Shown: positions 4,464 through 20,355, counted from the stretch's first letter. The stretch is 64,000 bases of DNA from a virus (IMGVR_UViG_3300046501_000132:32001-96000); one strand, 5' to 3'. Program-made: numbers and translations. The notes: generated by a model not told the origin, from the letters alone.

Positions 4464-5030
4464 ATGAGTACAATGTCTGAAAGATTGAAAGAGACTCTAG
4501 GGATGCTAGAGAACAAGGGGATTGAGATTAAGAATGTCCCCTCATTTGAAGATGCGGAATCTGATGAAGTGGTTGGCGCTCGTGGCGGCGCCATTATTCC
4601 ATTCGTCCCCAAAGAGATCGCAACATCAATTCCTGAGACTGAAAACTCAGACATTCGTGATGACTATATTACTTCTCGTAATATCACCCACACGTTGATC
4701 GATATGGCCGGCAGCGCGCTACAGGGCGCCCTGGATGTAGCAATCGAAACGCAGCATCCGAAGGCTTACACAGTCTTCAATGAACTCGCTACGACGATGC
4801 GCGGACTATCCAAGGACTTACTTGAGATGCAGAAGATTTACAAAGAAATCTCTGCTGAGAAGAAAGCCGCTCAAGAGGCTGCAAAGAAGGTTGGTGGTGT
4901 GACTAACAACCTTAACATCACGACACACAGCGCCTCTCTGGCAGATGTGTTGAAGATGATTAAGGATGGTGTTGATCCTAACACGATTGATCTAAATTCA
5001 ATTCCAGCTGAGGTGATTGATAATGAGTAA
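4464..5030 (+). CDS. gp16: Terminase small subunit gp16
   Basis: DDYITSRN, HPKAYTVF, VTNNLNI motifs; upstream of gp17. Confidence 0.88.
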   Translation: MSTMSERLKETLGMLENKGIEIKNVPSFEDAESDEVVGARGGAIIPFVPKEIATSIPETENSDIRDDYITSRNITHTLIDMAGSALQGALDVAIETQHPKAYTVFNELATTMRGLSKDLLEMQKIYKEISAEKKAAQEAAKKVGGVTNNLNITTHSASLADVLKMIKDGVDPNTIDLNSIPAEVIDNE

Positions 5031-6840
5031 GAAAGACGTTCAATTTGCTCCATATAAAGATGGAGGCGGTCACACCTTTCCGCTCCCAGACATCTTCCTA
5101 CCTTATCGGGACACCTATAATGGCAACATTCTGATCAAGAAGGCTTTCGTGAAATCTGAACTAACTGTTCAGCACATTCTGGAAGCCGCTCGTTGCGAAG
5201 CCGATCCAATCTACTTCATCGAGAACTATTGCCGTATTATTTCTCTGGATGAGGGCATCATCCCATTCCGTCTGTTCAAGTATCAGAAGGAAATGATCAA
5301 GATGTACGCGGAAAACCGTTTTAGTCTAACGCTGACCGCGCGTCAGATGGGTAAGACGGCAGCGATGGCAGCGTTTATCTTATGGTTCGCCATCTTCCAT
5401 CCGACTAAGACAATTGCTGTGTTGGCTAATAAGGGTGAACAGGCTCAGGAAATCATGGACCGTATTCGGATGGCCTTTGAATACTTGCCTTTCTTCCTAC
5501 AACACGGTGTGAAGGTTTATAATAAGCGTCGTATTGAATTTGATAACGGATCGGTCATCTTCTCTGCCGCCACGTCTGCCTCTGGTATTCGTGGTCGCTC
5601 TGTTGACCTTTGTTACATCGATGAGGCTGCGTTTATTGAAAACGATTTGACTTTCTACGAATCCACATATCCGGTTATTACGTCTGGTAGCGCGTCGCGC
5701 GTTATTATGACCACGACGCCTCGTGGTGCTCGTGGGATGTTCTATATGCTTTGGCGGGATTCGTTAGCCAATCGCAACTTCTACACTCGATTGGAAGTCT
5801 TATGGGATGCACATCCAAAGCGGGATGAGAAGTGGAAGGAAGAAACGATTGCTAATATTGGTTACTCTCGTTTCGCACAGGAATTTGCTTGTAAGTTCCA
5901 AGGTTCGTCAGGCACCTTAATCCCAACCGAAGTTCTGGAACGGATGGAGTGGATGAATCCTCTTGAAGAAGATGAACACCTGAAGGTATATCTGAAATAT
6001 CAGCACAAGTATGTTCAAGTTGCTGATCCGGAAGATGAGAAGGGCGAACGGATGATCACCGTTCCAGTTCCGCTAACCGCTGAGGATAAACCAAGACGTT
6101 ATATTGCAATTGCTGACCCGGCCGCAGGTTTGGGTCTAGACTACTCTGTTTGTACCGTATTGGATGTTACCGAATATCCATATCGTATTGTAGCCAAGTA
6201 CAGAAACAACAATATTAGTCCGTTATTGTTCCCGCATACCATTCTAAATATATGTATGTCCTATGGTAATTGTCCAGCACTCGTTGAATCTAACAACGAC
6301 GTGGGTGGTCAGGTTACTTACATCTTGTATTACGAATTGGAATATGAGAATGTTATCTTGACGTCAAACTCTGAGCGCGCAATCGGCGGCTTGCGTGAAG
6401 GCGGTAAGGGTAATCAGGCACTACCTGGCGTGCGGACTACCAAGAAGGTTAAATCCATCGGTTGCTCTAACCTCAAGACTCTACTCGAAAATGAGTATTT
6501 GGTTATTGAGGACCAAGAGACCATCGAGGAATTGGGAACATTCATTGCTAAGGGCGCAAGCTACGAGGCGGATGAAGAGTGCCATGACGATACCGTTATG
6601 CCTTTGGTATTGTTCTCTTGGTTCATCAAATCTGAGCTATTCAATGAATACTGCGGTAGCGATATTGTTGTTGATCTATATCAGAGAAACGTCAATAAAG
6701 CGATGGAACAAATCCTGCCATTCGGCTTCATCGAAAGAGCAAACGAGGAAGTTCAAGAGTACCAAGATGTTGTGGGTGGATACTCTATGAACGTAACCGA
6801 GAATAAGGTGATGACGTTTGATGAATGGATGAACACGTAG
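5023..6840 (+). CDS. gp17: Terminase large subunit gp17 (ends in TAG)
   Basis: ARQMGKT Walker A, YIDEAAFI Walker B, HDDTVM nuclease motif. Confidence 0.97.
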   Translation: MSKKDVQFAPYKDGGGHTFPLPDIFLPYRDTYNGNILIKKAFVKSELTVQHILEAARCEADPIYFIENYCRIISLDEGIIPFRLFKYQKEMIKMYAENRFSLTLTARQMGKTAAMAAFILWFAIFHPTKTIAVLANKGEQAQEIMDRIRMAFEYLPFFLQHGVKVYNKRRIEFDNGSVIFSAATSASGIRGRSVDLCYIDEAAFIENDLTFYESTYPVITSGSASRVIMTTTPRGARGMFYMLWRDSLANRNFYTRLEVLWDAHPKRDEKWKEETIANIGYSRFAQEFACKFQGSSGTLIPTEVLERMEWMNPLEEDEHLKVYLKYQHKYVQVADPEDEKGERMITVPVPLTAEDKPRRYIAIADPAAGLGLDYSVCTVLDVTEYPYRIVAKYRNNNISPLLFPHTILNICMSYGNCPALVESNNDVGGQVTYILYYELEYENVILTSNSERAIGGLREGGKGNQALPGVRTTKKVKSIGCSNLKTLLENEYLVIEDQETIEELGTFIAKGASYEADEECHDDTVMPLVLFSWFIKSELFNEYCGSDIVVDLYQRNVNKAMEQILPFGFIERANEEVQEYQDVVGGYSMNVTENKVMTFDEWMNT

Positions 6841-8788: not shown

Positions 8789-9316
8789 ATGCAGATTTCT
8801 CAATTGCGCCAAGCTGTAAAGTCTGGTCTAGTTCGTTCGAACCGTTGGCGTGTCACAGTCAACTTCCCTGGCTATGCCGGTTCGGGCGCTGACGGACAAC
8901 AAGCTTCTTTGCTAGCACGTACCACTAATACCCCTCCTTCTCAGGTCGGTGTTATTGATCTTACTTGGGGTGGTCGTAATCTACCGATCCCTGGGGATCG
9001 TACCTATGAAGAATTCACTGTGACGTTTATCGGCGTCAACGATATGAATGTGTACAACGCATTCCTACGTTGGTCTGAAAACATCAATGGTTCTGATTCT
9101 AACAAGGGTCTGACTGACCTTGATCTGATCATGAACGATATCCAACTTGAACTGTTGGACGTAAATGATACCGTGACGAAGACTTACCTGCTACACGACG
9201 CATGGCCCGCTACGGTCGGCCAGATGTCGATGGACTCTGGTGAAATGGATGGTTACTCGCAATACGATGTAACTTTCCGCTATGTGTCTTACACACAGCC
9301 GAACATCACGCTATAA
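8789..9316 (+). CDS. gp19: Tail tube protein gp19
   Basis: GGRNLPIPGDRTYEEFTVT, AWPATVG motifs; follows gp18. Confidence 0.93.
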   Translation: MQISQLRQAVKSGLVRSNRWRVTVNFPGYAGSGADGQQASLLARTTNTPPSQVGVIDLTWGGRNLPIPGDRTYEEFTVTFIGVNDMNVYNAFLRWSENINGSDSNKGLTDLDLIMNDIQLELLDVNDTVTKTYLLHDAWPATVGQMSMDSGEMDGYSQYDVTFRYVSYTQPNITL

Positions 9317-9386: not shown

Positions 9387-11054
9387 ATGGCTAAATCATC
9401 ATTTCGCAATTCATTCGCTCGTCTGTTCCTAGGGGCAGAAGTTGAGAATCCGGAACGCGAAGAAGAACAAAAAATCATCGAACGTCAGACACTGGTAGCG
9501 GTCGACAACGATGATGCAGCCGATCTTGTTGATGTAAGTCATTACTATGCTTCTGGTTACACCAACCAACTTGATCTACGGAATCAAGCAGAAGTCATTA
9601 ATGAATATCGCTCTATGTCCGTTCACTCTGAAGTGGACAAGGCAATTGACGATATCATCAACGAAGCTGTTATGTCCGATGCTGATGAGTATCCCGTAGA
9701 AATCAAAATTAAGGAATCTGAAAACGTTTCTGATGAGACGAAAGATAAGATCACCAAAGAGTTTGATTCTTTGATGCGGATGCTTAATTTTGATCTTCGC
9801 TCTTACGAAATTTACAAGCAATTCTATGTGGATGGTAGACTCTACTACCACAAGATCATCGACCCGGATAAGCCTAAGAAGGGTATCTTGAAGTTGGTGA
9901 ATCTCGATCCACGTGCTATCAAGAAGATTAAGGAAATTCAGACCGAGACTGATCCGGCAACTAAGATTGACCGCATTACTGCCTCGCGCTCTTACTTCCT
10001 ATATGACCCAACATTTGCTAACGCTTCCAGTTCTGGAAACGGGAACCGTCTGAGTCTCGGATCGCGCGTGCACCAAGCTCTCGAAATGAGCCTAGATTCG
10101 GTCGCATTCGTTCACAGCGGTATTATCTCGGGTGACTCTGGAAACGTTATCCTAGGCCATCTAGAAAAGGCTAGGAAGCCCCTTAATAACCTGCGTATGC
10201 TAGAGGATGCAGCGGTGATCTACCGGATTACACGCGCGCCTGAACGTCGTATTTTCTATGTGGACGTTGGCTCACTGCCTAAGAAGGGTGCTGAAGAATA
10301 CATGATGAGTCTGATCAATAAATATCGGACTAAATTGGTGTATGATGGTAACACAGGTAAAGTAAAGGGCAATTCTCATCAAGTGTCTATGATGGAAGAC
10401 TACTGGCTGCCTCGTCGTGAGGGCGGTCGTGGTACAGAAATCACCACTCTACCTGCCGGTGAGAACCTGAACCAAATTGAGGACTTGCGTTATTTCCAAA
10501 AGCGTCTTTTGGAAAGCCTGAATGTCCCTAAGTCAAGACTAGAAAATGAAGCGACCATTTCGATTGGTAACCGTGCTACGGAAATCAACCGGGATGAAAT
10601 CAAGTTCAATAAGTTTGTACAGCGCCTACGTCGCCGTTTCAACAACTTATTCATTGATCTACTTCGCACTCAGCTAATCTTGAAGGGCATCACAACTGCT
10701 GATGATTGGGATGAATTCGTTCTACCTCTGCTAACCTTCGAATATGCTTCTGACACATTTGTGAAGGAAGAACAAGAAGCCCAGATCATGGAGAACCGCC
10801 TAGCGGCTCTTGATCAGGCTGATCCGTATGTCGGCAAGTATTTCTCAAAGAAAACTGTTCAACGTAAGATTTTGCGTATGAGTGAGTCAGAAATTGAGGA
10901 TGAACAAAAGCTGATCGACAGTGAAGTGAAGGATGGACACTACATGGACCCCGAAGACCAACGCGACTTCGATGCAGGCATCCATGACAATCAAATCGAC
11001 GCTCAAGTGAAATTGGCCAAGGCGACTCGTCCGCCTGCGCCTCCACGGAAATAA
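9387..11054 (+). CDS. gp20: Portal vertex protein gp20
   Basis: YRITRAPERRIFYVDVG, EDYWLPRREGGRGTEITTLP motifs. Confidence 0.98.
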   Translation: MAKSSFRNSFARLFLGAEVENPEREEEQKIIERQTLVAVDNDDAADLVDVSHYYASGYTNQLDLRNQAEVINEYRSMSVHSEVDKAIDDIINEAVMSDADEYPVEIKIKESENVSDETKDKITKEFDSLMRMLNFDLRSYEIYKQFYVDGRLYYHKIIDPDKPKKGILKLVNLDPRAIKKIKEIQTETDPATKIDRITASRSYFLYDPTFANASSSGNGNRLSLGSRVHQALEMSLDSVAFVHSGIISGDSGNVILGHLEKARKPLNNLRMLEDAAVIYRITRAPERRIFYVDVGSLPKKGAEEYMMSLINKYRTKLVYDGNTGKVKGNSHQVSMMEDYWLPRREGGRGTEITTLPAGENLNQIEDLRYFQKRLLESLNVPKSRLENEATISIGNRATEINRDEIKFNKFVQRLRRRFNNLFIDLLRTQLILKGITTADDWDEFVLPLLTFEYASDTFVKEEQEAQIMENRLAALDQADPYVGKYFSKKTVQRKILRMSESEIEDEQKLIDSEVKDGHYMDPEDQRDFDAGIHDNQIDAQVKLAKATRPPAPPRK

Positions 11055-15243: not shown

Positions 15244-16698
15244 CTAGGTACGGGCGCGGTTGCGAACTTCGTCAAACGTTGGGATATATTCCCGTTCGCC
15301 ATCACAGTAGTACATCTTCCATCCATCCGTATCGCGGAAGACGCTGAACCCGTTGCCCGCCACAGTTTCAATCTGACCGTTCACCAATGCAGTATGGGCC
15401 AGGCCGGACAGCGACTTCTTACTGGAGTCAGTCTTGGGTTCCTTCAGGAGATTTACCCAACCCAGTTCCTCATCGTAGCGGGCAGTTGCCTTCATCGAGA
15501 ATGAGAACTCATCGCGGCCAGGACCATGAGTCATACCACCGCCCATACCAAAGGTCAGGTTATCCATCGAGTAATCAGCAGCCAGCAGATTGTCGATGAT
15601 CTGGGGAATACTGATGTGGTTGATACCATCGCCTTGGATAACCCGGAACGAGGGATGCAGAACCTTATACCCTGCGTCGTTCTTGGTCGAACCAACCTTC
15701 TCATCGATCAGACGGATGATTTCAATCGGCTTGGTAAGCGGGTTGCCGGAATCCGGGCGAGCAACCATCACGCCGCCAGAGGCAATAATACGGTCCCTCA
15801 GCTTACCACACAGATATTCACCGACGAAACGCTCATCGTCATAGGTGTCAATCACCACAGACTGGAGAGGAATACCGATACCTCGCTTGGTACGCGCCAC
15901 AGCTTCTTCCAGACGTTCAACCGACATTACAGCAGCGCCCCAGTCATCCTTATTGGCCGCATCTGAGTGTGAGCACATCACACTATGTTCCGTAGCATCA
16001 ACCGAACTAAACACCGGCTTGAACGTCCGGTAGATAGCCTTGATATAGGCGTTGGCTTGCAGGCAGTCAGAACCGGAGAACAGGAATCCGTGGGCGATTG
16101 CCGCAATGATTGCCGAATCGTTACCATCCGCGCCGCGATCACCGAAGTTGTGCAGCTTATACTCCAGCATGCTCATATCGGCCCCAGATTCTTGCATTGC
16201 CGCTTGAATCTTCTTGTAGCAGTAGCGGCTCATCGTGGCTACTGTGGTCATCTTCCACATGATACGCTGCACGACGGTTTCCACGTAGGACACAAGCCAG
16301 AAGAAACGTTCATCCGAGTTTACGATACCCAGGATCGGAGTATTGGGTTTCACCACCGTGCCTTCTTCCACGCCGAACACCTCCAGCGGTAGACGGCCAT
16401 CATACTCATTGGTGATGATTTCCCAGTCAGCTCGGTTGAACTCATAACCATATTGGTTGACTTCAACTTCAGCTTCATCGATCATTTCCTGAGTGATACG
16501 CACGTTTGCCAGAACAGCGGCAACCAGGGAAGCGCCAGCAGACACGATGCGATCGGTATACGACGAAGCCTTGCGCGGCACCACAGTTGAATAGATGAGC
16601 TTCGTGCCCTCGGGATATTCTGCGAAGTGGTGCAATTTATAGCTATCACAAGCGAGGATAAAGTTGCCCGGAACCAGATCATTAACGGATACAGTCAT
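15244..16698 (-). CDS. nadV: Nicotinamide phosphoribosyltransferase (ends in TAG)
   Basis: DSYKLHH, LHNFGDRG, ATEHSV, VIDTYD, RPDSG, IQGDGI, FGMGGG motifs. Confidence 0.95.
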   Translation of the reverse strand: MTVSVNDLVPGNFILACDSYKLHHFAEYPEGTKLIYSTVVPRKASSYTDRIVSAGASLVAAVLANVRITQEMIDEAEVEVNQYGYEFNRADWEIITNEYDGRLPLEVFGVEEGTVVKPNTPILGIVNSDERFFWLVSYVETVVQRIMWKMTTVATMSRYCYKKIQAAMQESGADMSMLEYKLHNFGDRGADGNDSAIIAAIAHGFLFSGSDCLQANAYIKAIYRTFKPVFSSVDATEHSVMCSHSDAANKDDWGAAVMSVERLEEAVARTKRGIGIPLQSVVIDTYDDERFVGEYLCGKLRDRIIASGGVMVARPDSGNPLTKPIEIIRLIDEKVGSTKNDAGYKVLHPSFRVIQGDGINHISIPQIIDNLLAADYSMDNLTFGMGGGMTHGPGRDEFSFSMKATARYDEELGWVNLLKEPKTDSSKKSLSGLAHTALVNGQIETVAGNGFSVFRDTDGWKMYYCDGEREYIPTFDEVRNRART

Positions 16699-18068: not shown

Positions 18069-18161
18069 TGGCGGTATGAGGTAGGATTTGAACCCACGCG
18101 GGAGCTTTCACTCCGTTGGTTTTGGAGACCAATGCCATCGACCGGACTAGGCGACTCACCC
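18069..18161 (-). tRNA. tRNA with CCA (Trp) anticodon but long variable arm
   Basis: TTGGT-CTCCAAA-ACCAA anticodon arm; GGAG/CTCC variable stem; T-loop TTCAAAT; G73, CCA end. Confidence 0.8.
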
Positions 18162-18762: not shown

Positions 18763-19011
18763 TTACATCTTTGCGAGAATCTCGTATTCCCGAATAAGAA
18801 ACACGGTTTCGCCATCCACCACTGTCCGCTTGGCCTCAGCCCAATTCGGAACAATTACATCATCAATCTCGATGAGTCCGGCGCTTACTTCATCACCAAC
18901 AGCGATTACCTTACCATAAGTGGCAGTGTTAGTGCTCGTGATGATAAGAGTGGTACTTTGCGCTTCAACCTTTACTTCGGTAAAGGCAACATTATCAAAA
19001 AGTGGCTTCAT
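18763..19011 (-). CDS. GroES-like co-chaperonin
   Basis: MKPLFDNV, GKVIAVG, LIREYEILA motifs. Confidence 0.85.
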   Translation of the reverse strand: MKPLFDNVAFTEVKVEAQSTTLIITSTNTATYGKVIAVGDEVSAGLIEIDDVIVPNWAEAKRTVVDGETVFLIREYEILAKM

Positions 19012-19347: not shown

Positions 19348-19905
19348 TTACAACGGGAATTTCTTCCCAGCGCTAATCAACGCTTTCTTCTTGATCTTGA
19401 AGCTCGTACTTTCTTGTCCACCAAACATCTTACAGTTGGCGATTATCTCAGCCCAAGCAGTAAAATATAAGGATGGAGCTAGAGGATGTTTCCAAAGATT
19501 AACAATATCATCACCCTTCAGTGTATGGAACTCCATATCCTTTAAGATGAGTATTGCCGTCTCAAGATCGTCCGGCCAGATCGTAAAGTATTGAGCACAA
19601 GAATACTTAGCGTGATCAGGAAAACGTTGCTTACCATCTTCTCCCACGACTCTAGCTAGATGCTTACCGCAATCGTGGTAAATATGATACTGCTTCAAAT
19701 CCTTAATGTAATGTTTAGTCCGTTCATATATCTCTCCGATCTACGGAGGAAGATCAATGATTTGCTCACCACCCTCAAGCTGATTAATCAACTCTTGGTA
19801 CGCCTCGTGAACCGCGTTTCCGTGATCCAACATATTCATCGTTTCGAACTGGTAGCAATTACTCATCGCTTCTTTCAGTTCGTATAGAGATTTAGCTAGC
19901 TGCAT
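19348..19905 (-). CDS. HD-domain phosphohydrolase, 185 aa if the in-frame TAG at 19741-19743 is read through
   Basis: MQLAK...LDHGNAV...IDLPP-TAG-IGEIYERTKHYIKDLKQYHIYHDCGK...FPDHA; the two tracked ORFs share a frame. Confidence 0.8.
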
Positions 19906-20239
19906 TTGGACCCTTCCAGAGTTTATACTTACTGAACGTCTTACGTTGCTCAGCCGTGATCGGTTCAGTTGCGAAAGAAGTGAATCCATAATCCCAATCA
20001 GGCTCATAGAAGGCTTCACATCGAATCCCACGATCAATAGTACGTTTCATTGCTACCTCCAACTTTTCCTTATTAGGAATTTGGAGCATAATCAACGAGG
20101 AAGGTTCATTTGACTTTCTATCAAATGAATGACCGGCTTCTAGCGCGGCGTGACAAGCCTGAACGATCTGCTGTTCAATCGGCAAGTCGGTACGGATGAA
20201 AACATACACCCAAGTCTTTTCAGCGTTCTACGATTTCAT
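19892..20239 (-). CDS. PTH2-like peptidyl-tRNA hydrolase, 115 aa if the in-frame TAG at 20228-20230 is read through
   Basis: ATG AAA TCG TAG AAC GCT GAA AAG ACT TGG GTG TAT...; YVFIRTDL...VQACHAALE PTH2 motif. Confidence 0.78.
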
Positions 20240-20279
20240 TTCTATCTCACTTTGTTTAACTACATTAAAACCAAATATA

Positions 20280-20355
20280 TGGTGGCTCGTACCGGGATCG
20301 AACCGGTGACCAGCGGATTTAGAATCCACCGCTCTACCAACTGAGCTAACGAGCC
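20280..20355 (-). tRNA. Amber suppressor tRNA (anticodon CUA)
   Basis: Canonical 76-nt cloverleaf: GGCTCGT/ACGAGCC-A-CCA; GTGGA-TT-CTA-AA-TCCGC. Confidence 0.93.

Follow-up and report, generated by a model that had tools for sequence, protein, structure and literature searches.

Why would a phage that uses the standard genetic code interrupt two of its own genes with one amber codon each, directly behind a tRNA gene whose anticodon matches that codon? The question arises from a locus in a 64,000-nucleotide (nt) stretch of viral DNA, hereafter the window (bases 32001-96000 of the 170,684-bp IMG/VR phage record IMGVR_UViG_3300046501_000132, rated 100% complete), in which an amber-suppressor tRNA(CUA) gene is followed by two overlapping genes, A and B, predicted to encode proteins of PTH2 and HD fold, respectively (Table 1). 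A prediction made earlier from the DNA alone held that full-length products arise only when the phage suppressor reads the two TAGs, and this reading is supported by the conservation of the stops, their co-occurrence with the tRNA, the selection acting around them, the standard code of the genome and a compact model of the HD protein. We put at roughly 80% the probability that the locus constitutes a tRNA-keyed translational lock, in which the two-gene operon would depend on the suppressor tRNA that precedes it. Comparison of related loci shows stops that are conserved, start-proximal and matched to a tRNA, that lie in a context favouring suppression, that are limited to two gene families and that are under selection.

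Table 1. Features of the locus, and two further genes that end in TAG, in window coordinates.
Feature	Position	Strand	Details
Amber-suppressor tRNA(CUA)	20280-20355	-	76 nt; ARAGORN, fold and blastn
Spacer, tRNA 3' end to gene A	20240-20279	-	40 nt; Shine-Dalgarno-like GTGAGA at 20245-20250, 5 nt before ATG
Gene A, PTH2-fold (predicted)	19892-20239	-	115 codons including TAG codon 4; ends TAA at 19892-19894
Gene A leader, ATG-AAA-TCG-TAG (M-K-S-amber)	20228-20239	-	TAG at 20228-20230, followed by A (AAC)
Gene B, HD-fold (predicted)	19348-19905	-	185 codons including TAG codon 55; ends TAA at 19348-19350
Gene B in-frame TAG, codon 55	19741-19743	-	followed by A (ATC); variable loop
T4-type terminase large subunit	5023-6840	+	stop is TAG (6838-6840)
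NadV/NAMPT	15244-16698	-	stop is TAG (15244-15246)

The putative key is a canonical tRNA, positioned just upstream of gene A as the original prediction had stated on grounds that ARAGORN and the sequence both uphold. Its cloverleaf has a 7-bp acceptor stem, a T-loop, A73 and an encoded CCA end (fold z-score -3.4), and its seven-nucleotide anticodon loop, UUCUAAA, carries U33, A37 and A38; among 52 distinct sequences of related tRNA(CUA) genes, 44 have the loop CUCUAAA. A blastn comparison with E. coli genomes identified tRNA-Lys as the closest gene (79-80% identity over the full length), and the amino acid inserted is probably lysine or glutamine. The Lys-like body with A73, taken together with the conservation of TAGs in the client genes, suggests that the tRNA is charged and reads both UAGs. 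A Trp-derived suppressor was considered and rejected: the only phage matches near identity proved to be true tRNA-Trp(CCA) genes, from Klebsiella and Kosakonia phages, that share a generic similarity in the arms, and among E. coli genes tRNA-Lys matches best over the full length. In many phages (L099, L100, L101, L103, L105, L130, L146 and L149) there are two tRNA(CUA) genes that differ from each other, frequently in that position 73 is A in one and G in the other, and such pairs may insert different amino acids.

The arrangement of the two genes also agrees with what had been claimed for them, namely that they overlap and that each has a single in-frame TAG with an open frame beyond it. In gene A the frame continues past the codon-4 TAG to a TAA, and in gene B it does the same past codon 55. 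ARAGORN places 25 tRNA genes in the window, every one on the minus strand. Since a promoter scan of the spacer found no sigma-70-like promoter between the tRNA and gene A, gene A is likely to be co-transcribed with the tRNA cluster, and the 14-nt overlap of the two genes suggests that translation of gene B is coupled to that of gene A.

A phage that reads TAG as sense throughout its genome (code 15) would offer a simpler account of the interrupted frames. We rejected this possibility, because the terminase and NadV both end in TAG; the original prediction had made the same argument from these genes (naming the terminase gp17), and it holds. Among open reading frames (ORFs) of at least 150 codons in the genome, 76 stop at TAA, 46 at TGA and 10 at TAG. 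If the suppressor is active, the terminase would gain 5 residues and NadV 13 before the next in-frame stop. The absence of other TAG-split genes had also been asserted, and two screens of the whole genome bear this out. The first, for TAGs flanked both before and after by coding potential and 40 open codons, returned the gene B TAG as its best candidate, and the remaining candidates look like antisense shadow ORFs. The second, for a Shine-Dalgarno (SD) sequence, an ATG, a short leader and a TAG followed by a long ORF, was passed by gene A alone; the other candidates had an ATG directly after the stop and were discarded. Across the 170.7-kb genome, neither screen yielded a further convincing TAG-interrupted gene. 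Amber read-through is needed by exactly two genes, both adjoining the amber tRNA.

The pair formed by genes A and B stands side by side in many large phages, as tblastn searches revealed, and the early stop of gene A recurs with it. Homologues of gene A begin MAQ-TAG-NEKTW in CBB, MTH-TAG-NDKTW in Serratia BF, ML-TAG-NKHW in Arash, MT-TAG-IHENKK in ME3 and ML-TAG-ISDKTY in RsoM2USA, and an SD sequence stands before the ATG upstream of the TAG in the present phage, CBB, BF and Arash. When IMG/VR was scanned with an alignment of the PTH2-like protein, M-x(1-2)-TAG was found in all 18 loci, 17 of which have a tRNA(CUA) within 10 kb according to ARAGORN; the eighteenth has one with the loop CCCUAAA, which ARAGORN missed. 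The tRNA lies 1-4 kb from the gene pair in Arash, CBB and BF and elsewhere in the genome in RsoM2USA and Xoo-sp13. XacN1 carries two suppressor tRNAs with a CUA anticodon (PMC5852040), and the cultured phages that fit the pattern of TAG plus tRNA(CUA) are Arash, CBB, BF, ME3, RsoM2USA, Xoo-sp13 and XacN1. In the two Xanthomonas phages, Xoo-sp13 (L062:11413-12309) and XacN1 (L064:2443-3303), the HD and PTH2-like domains occupy a single ORF in the order HD-PTH2. This fused ORF begins SD-ATG-AAG-(AAG)-TAG, such that the TAG has followed the 5' end and stands at codon 3-4, upstream of the annotated start. Because they are fused in these phages, the two proteins probably work together, which argues for a functional link between them.

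The short leader could also be read as a mini-ORF, M-K-S-stop, that is never read through and after which gene A would be re-initiated, in this phage at an in-frame GTG at codon 11 (20209). Mini-ORFs of two to three codons do have a precedent in the lambda bar minigenes, which provoke peptidyl-tRNA drop-off that is cleared by Pth. The GTG, however, lacks an SD sequence and is replaced by ATT or ATC in most relatives; most relatives have no start codon at all between the TAG and the first β-strand, and the residues directly after the TAG are conserved in frame. A mini-ORF can moreover account neither for the codon-55 TAG inside the HD domain nor for the co-occurrence and co-variation of the stops with the tRNA anticodon. 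We consider this explanation very unlikely.

Surveying from the HD protein widened the comparison. Scans with an HD alignment recovered 54 loci from viral records and a further 14 'genome' loci, mostly contigs of metagenome-assembled genomes (MAGs). Dozens of the diverged loci show, at the head of both genes, an SD-ATG followed within a few codons by a TAG: MK-TAG-V and MT-TAG-V in L099, for instance, and M-TAG-N and MS-TAG-N in L103. Canonical Pth2 genes that adjoin an HD gene begin likewise (L136, L139, L142, L147 and L162). Such TAGs are present in 55 of 61 distinct HD loci, and a tRNA(CUA) was found in 50 of the 55; in four of these cases it lies elsewhere in the genome, where a covariance model of 52 suppressor tRNAs located it. 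Together with the 18 PTH2-like loci, these counts bear out what the lock would entail for homologues, that they keep the TAG in the company of the tRNA. By comparison, a tRNA(CUA) was found in only one of the six HD loci that have no such TAG; this locus, L130, has two tRNA(CUA) genes, no TAG in HD and a PTH2-like gene that looks frameshifted, and is uninformative. The most reduced form occurs in eight Obscuribacterales/Melainabacteria MAG contigs (L151-L159), in which a lone HD gene starts MT-TAG-V, a tRNA(CUA) about 150 nt downstream of it is the sole tRNA of the locus, and no PTH2 gene was detected.

Where the stops lie and what follows them speak to whether they could have accumulated by tolerated drift, that is, as near-neutral TAGs piling up in dispensable genes of phages that keep a suppressor for some other reason. 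Across 65 distinct leaders, the TAG occupies codon 3 in 34 leaders, codon 4 in 19, codon 2 in 3 and codon 5-12 in 8; the remaining leader has no ATG within 12 codons upstream. Directly after the leader TAG stand 43 A, 21 G, a single C and no T, whereas ordinary TAG stops in the same loci are followed by T in 58 cases, A in 49, G in 48 and C in 52; a purine thus follows 64 of 65 leader TAGs as against 47% of ordinary ones. A 3' purine favours amber suppression, as Bossi and also Miller and Albertini reportedly found in 1983. The leader pattern near the HD gene is made with TAG in 69 cases, TAA in 5 and TGA in 13, against a background of 60, 43 and 77. The TAGs inside HD genes fall at 'DLPP#I' in this phage, L042-L044 and L102, at 'ELDTG#G' in GAP32-like phages and at codon 4 in L045, which suggests that a TAG was gained repeatedly, at three positions in different clades. 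These sites are variable loop positions, filled in homologues by V, K, I, E or T, and HD genes of Arash-like phages and ME3 have no internal TAG; loops that tolerate substitution and clades without the stop are both compatible with drift. Against it stand the concentration of TAGs at codons 2-4 (56 of 65 leaders), the purine that follows nearly all of them, their confinement to two gene families, the retention of the HD TAG up to a synonymous divergence (dS) of ~0.9, its repeated gain at different positions, and the switch of one locus to TGA with a tRNA(UCA), described below. Drift is therefore, in our judgement, highly improbable.

The same data bear on whether the TAGs are decay or mistakes of sequencing and assembly, a notion to which GenBank lends some colour in that annotations of relatives split or omit both genes. 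The original prediction had doubted that two ambers beside a suppressor could be random decay, and the recurrence of the feature in more than 60 independent assemblies, cultured phages among them, bears it out and speaks equally against chance and sequencing error. For eight close pairs, the ratio of nonsynonymous to synonymous substitution rates (dN/dS) is 0.04-0.18 on each side of the HD TAG, which is the purifying selection across the stop that functional read-through would leave, and AlphaFold gives a confident model straight across the gene B TAG. Pseudogenes or errors are scarcely credible as an explanation.

If the tRNA is the key, a change in the stop codon would be expected to go together with a change in the tRNA, and one locus provides a solid case. 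The HD gene of L137 (~9980-10010) starts SD-ATG-TTG-TGA-GTG, an opal leader, and the same record (53% complete) has a canonical tRNA(UCA), at L208 c[1498,1574], and no tRNA(CUA) among the 40 of 51 tRNA matches inspected. A possible four-base lock in L109 is a lead. There, the frame of a close PTH2-like homologue can be reached from its SD-ATG, in ATG...CAG-TAGG-TGC, only by a +1 shift or a four-base codon (9075-9152, ~9630-9700), and the tRNA directly upstream, called Arg(CCU) by ARAGORN, has an odd loop, CGCCUAA, with G33, which contains CCUA, the complement of UAGG; in this complete genome, none of the 19 of 20 tRNA matches inspected has a stop anticodon. Two further loci show unusual codons or tRNAs. 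In L161, a Pseudomonas serbica megaplasmid contig, the HD frame (~5940-6000) is reached from SD-ATG-TTG only with TAGC taken as one step, and 1.1 kb upstream (L161:4775-4864) lies a 90-nt gene that resembles tRNA-Ser(GCU) and whose anticodon stem closes with an A.C mismatch; its GCU plus A37 spells GCUA, which may be trivial. At L144:11304-11379, beside an HD/PTH2-like locus free of any TAG lock, ARAGORN calls a tRNA whose anticodon (GAUG) has four bases.

We turned to structure to ask what the locked genes might encode. Gene A matches phrog_34073 (expectation value, E, 1e-22), and AlphaFold, given an alignment of 16 homologues, modelled its product with a predicted local distance difference test score (pLDDT) of 79. 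The top 14 Foldseek matches of this model in the PDB, 2zv3, 1q7s, 1xty, 3erj and 1wn2 among them, all belong to the Pth2 family (template modelling score ~0.7, E down to 8e-5, probability 1.0), and the PTH2-like fold that had been proposed is confirmed at this level. In canonical Pth2, a G-K loop after the RTDL motif holds the catalytic lysine, as in the S. solfataricus enzyme. A profile alignment of the gene A subfamily with a solved Pth, PDB 24bt_A, itself a weak match (E 0.31), leaves a 2-residue gap opposite 'tgK', and because of this gap the chemistry of the subfamily may be altered; the G-K pair is kept in the more distant locked homologues L136 and L139. The label of tRNA-rescue enzymes, which the original prediction had attached to the pair, is accordingly not established.

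For gene B, which matches phrog_14850 (E 3e-59), protein sequence searches against Pfam and the PDB returned only noise, and structure proved more telling. The read-through product is modelled by AlphaFold as one compact domain, with a pLDDT of 93 across the TAG. Its best VIA-align match is residues 250-445 of 3wfo_A (Z 14.1), an entry titled 'tRNA processing enzyme' that we take to be a class II CCA-adding enzyme, followed by the HD domain of the bacterial glycyl-tRNA synthetase β subunit (GlyRS-beta; Z 11.3, and 8.8 against its tRNA complex) and by many HD phosphohydrolases (Z 7-10), with PPX/GppA, PgpH, PhnZ and DatZ at Z 8-10. The closest likeness is to that part of class II tRNA nucleotidyltransferases, at the C terminus, which binds tRNA, and to the GlyRS-beta HD domain. 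Residues H28, H77, D78, H98, D123 and H127 are invariant across 16 HD sequences and include the H...HD...D motif of metal ligands. Matches spanning Z 7-14.1 and invariant ligands uphold the earlier HD assignment of the fold, and gene B is predicted to encode an HD-fold metal phosphohydrolase. The TAG sits between the first histidine, H28, and the H77-D78 dyad; since H28 precedes the stop while the dyad follows it, the truncated product, as predicted from these ligands, cannot be active. We also asked whether gene B supplies the C-terminal half that a split CCA-adding enzyme of the phage would lack, and rejected this on finding no PolyA_pol head domain in the genome. Judging from the two folds, both proteins would act on tRNA 3' ends.

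In the mechanism that we envisage, a ribosome starting at the ATG of a locked gene would meet UAG after one to three sense codons. Either release factor 1 (RF1) of the host would release a tiny peptide, or charged phage tRNA(CUA) would decode the codon and translation would go on. Gene B, coupled to gene A, would in this phage face a second lock of its own, and the amount made of both enzymes would rise and fall with charged suppressor relative to RF1.

What such a lock is for can be answered only tentatively. We favour, at less than even odds, a meter or fuse, by which potentially harmful tRNA-end enzymes would be made in proportion to working phage tRNA, because only (predicted) tRNA-end enzymes are locked and because minimal pairs of HD gene and tRNA travel together. 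A simpler purpose, and the main alternative, is a timer: the lock, unconnected with what the enzymes do, would merely delay synthesis of the enzymes until phage tRNAs have built up. The tRNA directly upstream of the operon and probably co-transcribed with it would suit a timer, and Borges et al. argue that suppressor tRNAs of recoded phages time the expression of late genes (bioRxiv 10.1101/2021.08.26.457843). A general timer should, however, be found on other late genes, and in these standard-code genomes the lock is limited to the PTH2 and HD families; the minimal HD-tRNA(CUA) pairs on MAG contigs, with no other tRNA nearby, point to a tie that is specific to the enzymes. We regard a timer as rather unlikely, though only slightly less likely than the fuse. 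The meter could be taken one step further. The suppressor tRNA may be at once the key and a proxy for the substrate, with the enzymes acting on the 3' end of their own key, which would make the module an autoregulatory fuse and a representative of a portable class of tRNA-keyed genes; this extension is possible, though doubtful. If it is true, the lock of such a class could be an amber, an opal or even a four-base codon that changes with the tRNA.

Several observations weigh against the lock and the meter, or against the identities on which the meter depends. The loci are phylogenetically related, and the counts given above overstate their independence. Five TAG-bearing HD loci, all on contigs that are short, incomplete or unchecked, yielded no tRNA(CUA). 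In gene A, the in-frame GTG at codon 11 might give rise to a protein shortened at its N terminus. Gene A scores below the gathering cut-off for PTH2 in Pfam (PF01981; E 3.8e-4, 21.1 bits against a cut-off of 23), and its subfamily appears to lack the canonical G-K loop; gene B has no Pfam HD match at E ≤ 1; and the biochemical function of both proteins is read from their folds. Finally, if the enzymes repair tRNA, placing them under the control of a tRNA that is itself vulnerable would run the feedback in the wrong direction.

Several known systems resemble parts of this arrangement. The gene for release factor 2, prfB, has an in-frame UGA at codon 26 that is passed by a +1 frameshift, which makes its expression autoregulated by the level of the release factor. 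As in prfB, an early in-frame stop would meter a component of translation through competition between termination and alternative decoding; unlike in prfB, the stop would be decoded by a dedicated suppressor tRNA, and the quantity metered would be that tRNA against RF1. The related locus L109, which may use a +1 or quadruplet event at UAGG, would come closer to prfB. Recoded phages such as the crAss-like and Lak phages, which read TAG as glutamine (code 15), have in-frame stops that were proposed to make expression dependent on the suppressor (bioRxiv 10.1101/2021.08.26.457843). They share with the present locus a phage tRNA(CUA) that reads, or here would read, in-frame TAG in a standard-code host. 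Their TAGs, however, run through a large number of structural and lysis genes, and they avoid ending genes with TAG. In the present phage the code is standard and only two genes carry the lock; the stop usually falls at codon 2-4, and predicted tRNA-end enzymes take the place of late genes as clients.

Also comparable are the orphan suppressor tRNAs of jumbo phages such as XacN1. The authors of the XacN1 genome considered read-through where genes end in amber, and reported that no target gene of its suppressors could be identified (PMC5852040). XacN1, like the present phage, is a standard-code phage with tRNA(CUA), and itself has the fused HD-PTH2 gene; in contrast to the gene ends that were searched, the candidate target put forward here lies at the front of that gene, where codon 3, still ahead of the annotated start, is TAG. 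Synthetic amber-suppressor gates also exist, for example a feedforward loop built on a suppressor tRNA (PMC7969014). An early amber codon and a suppressor tRNA form an AND gate there as they would here, with the difference that those gates are engineered and the present module is natural and conserved.

The proteins likewise depart from their nearest relatives. They match Pth2 (PF01981) and the HD domains of class II tRNA nucleotidyltransferases and GlyRS-beta in fold, and the HD metal ligands are conserved; in contrast to Pth2, however, gene A falls below the Pfam cut-off and apparently has no G-K loop, and unlike class II tRNA nucleotidyltransferases, gene B is a stand-alone domain of 185 residues with no nucleotidyltransferase head. 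A literature search found no paper describing a suppressor-tRNA-gated PTH2/HD module. Suppressor-dependent expression as such is already known in principle from recoded phages and synthetic circuits.

The module would provide a concrete and conserved target for the suppressor tRNAs of standard-code phages, hitherto a puzzle, and would show that one stop at codon 2-4 and a dedicated tRNA can form a gene-specific lock in nature, outside whole-genome recoding. That the client folds work on tRNA 3' ends suggests an unexplored control of the tRNA pool during infection, or a counter-defence over it; PADLOC returned no match to known defence-system families. Cultured carriers of the module exist in Pectobacterium phage CBB, Cronobacter phage GAP32, Acinetobacter phage ME3, Salmonella phage Arash, Xanthomonas phage XacN1 and RsoM2USA. 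The comparison also flags a systematic mis-annotation of the locked genes in GenBank: the records of CBB and Arash give the PTH2-like gene in truncated form, those of BF and the Erwinia SNUABM phages omit it altogether, and the HD gene is split in two. The tRNA(CUA) of Arash (L005:9174-9248) carries the GenBank label tRNA-Phe.

Two neighbours of the operon on the minus strand of the window deserve mention. A Cpn10/GroES-like gene (18766-19011; Pfam E 3e-6) lies within the tRNA cluster, and at 18073-18161 ARAGORN reports a tRNA-Trp(CCA) of 89 nt, far above the normal length of a class I tRNA-Trp.

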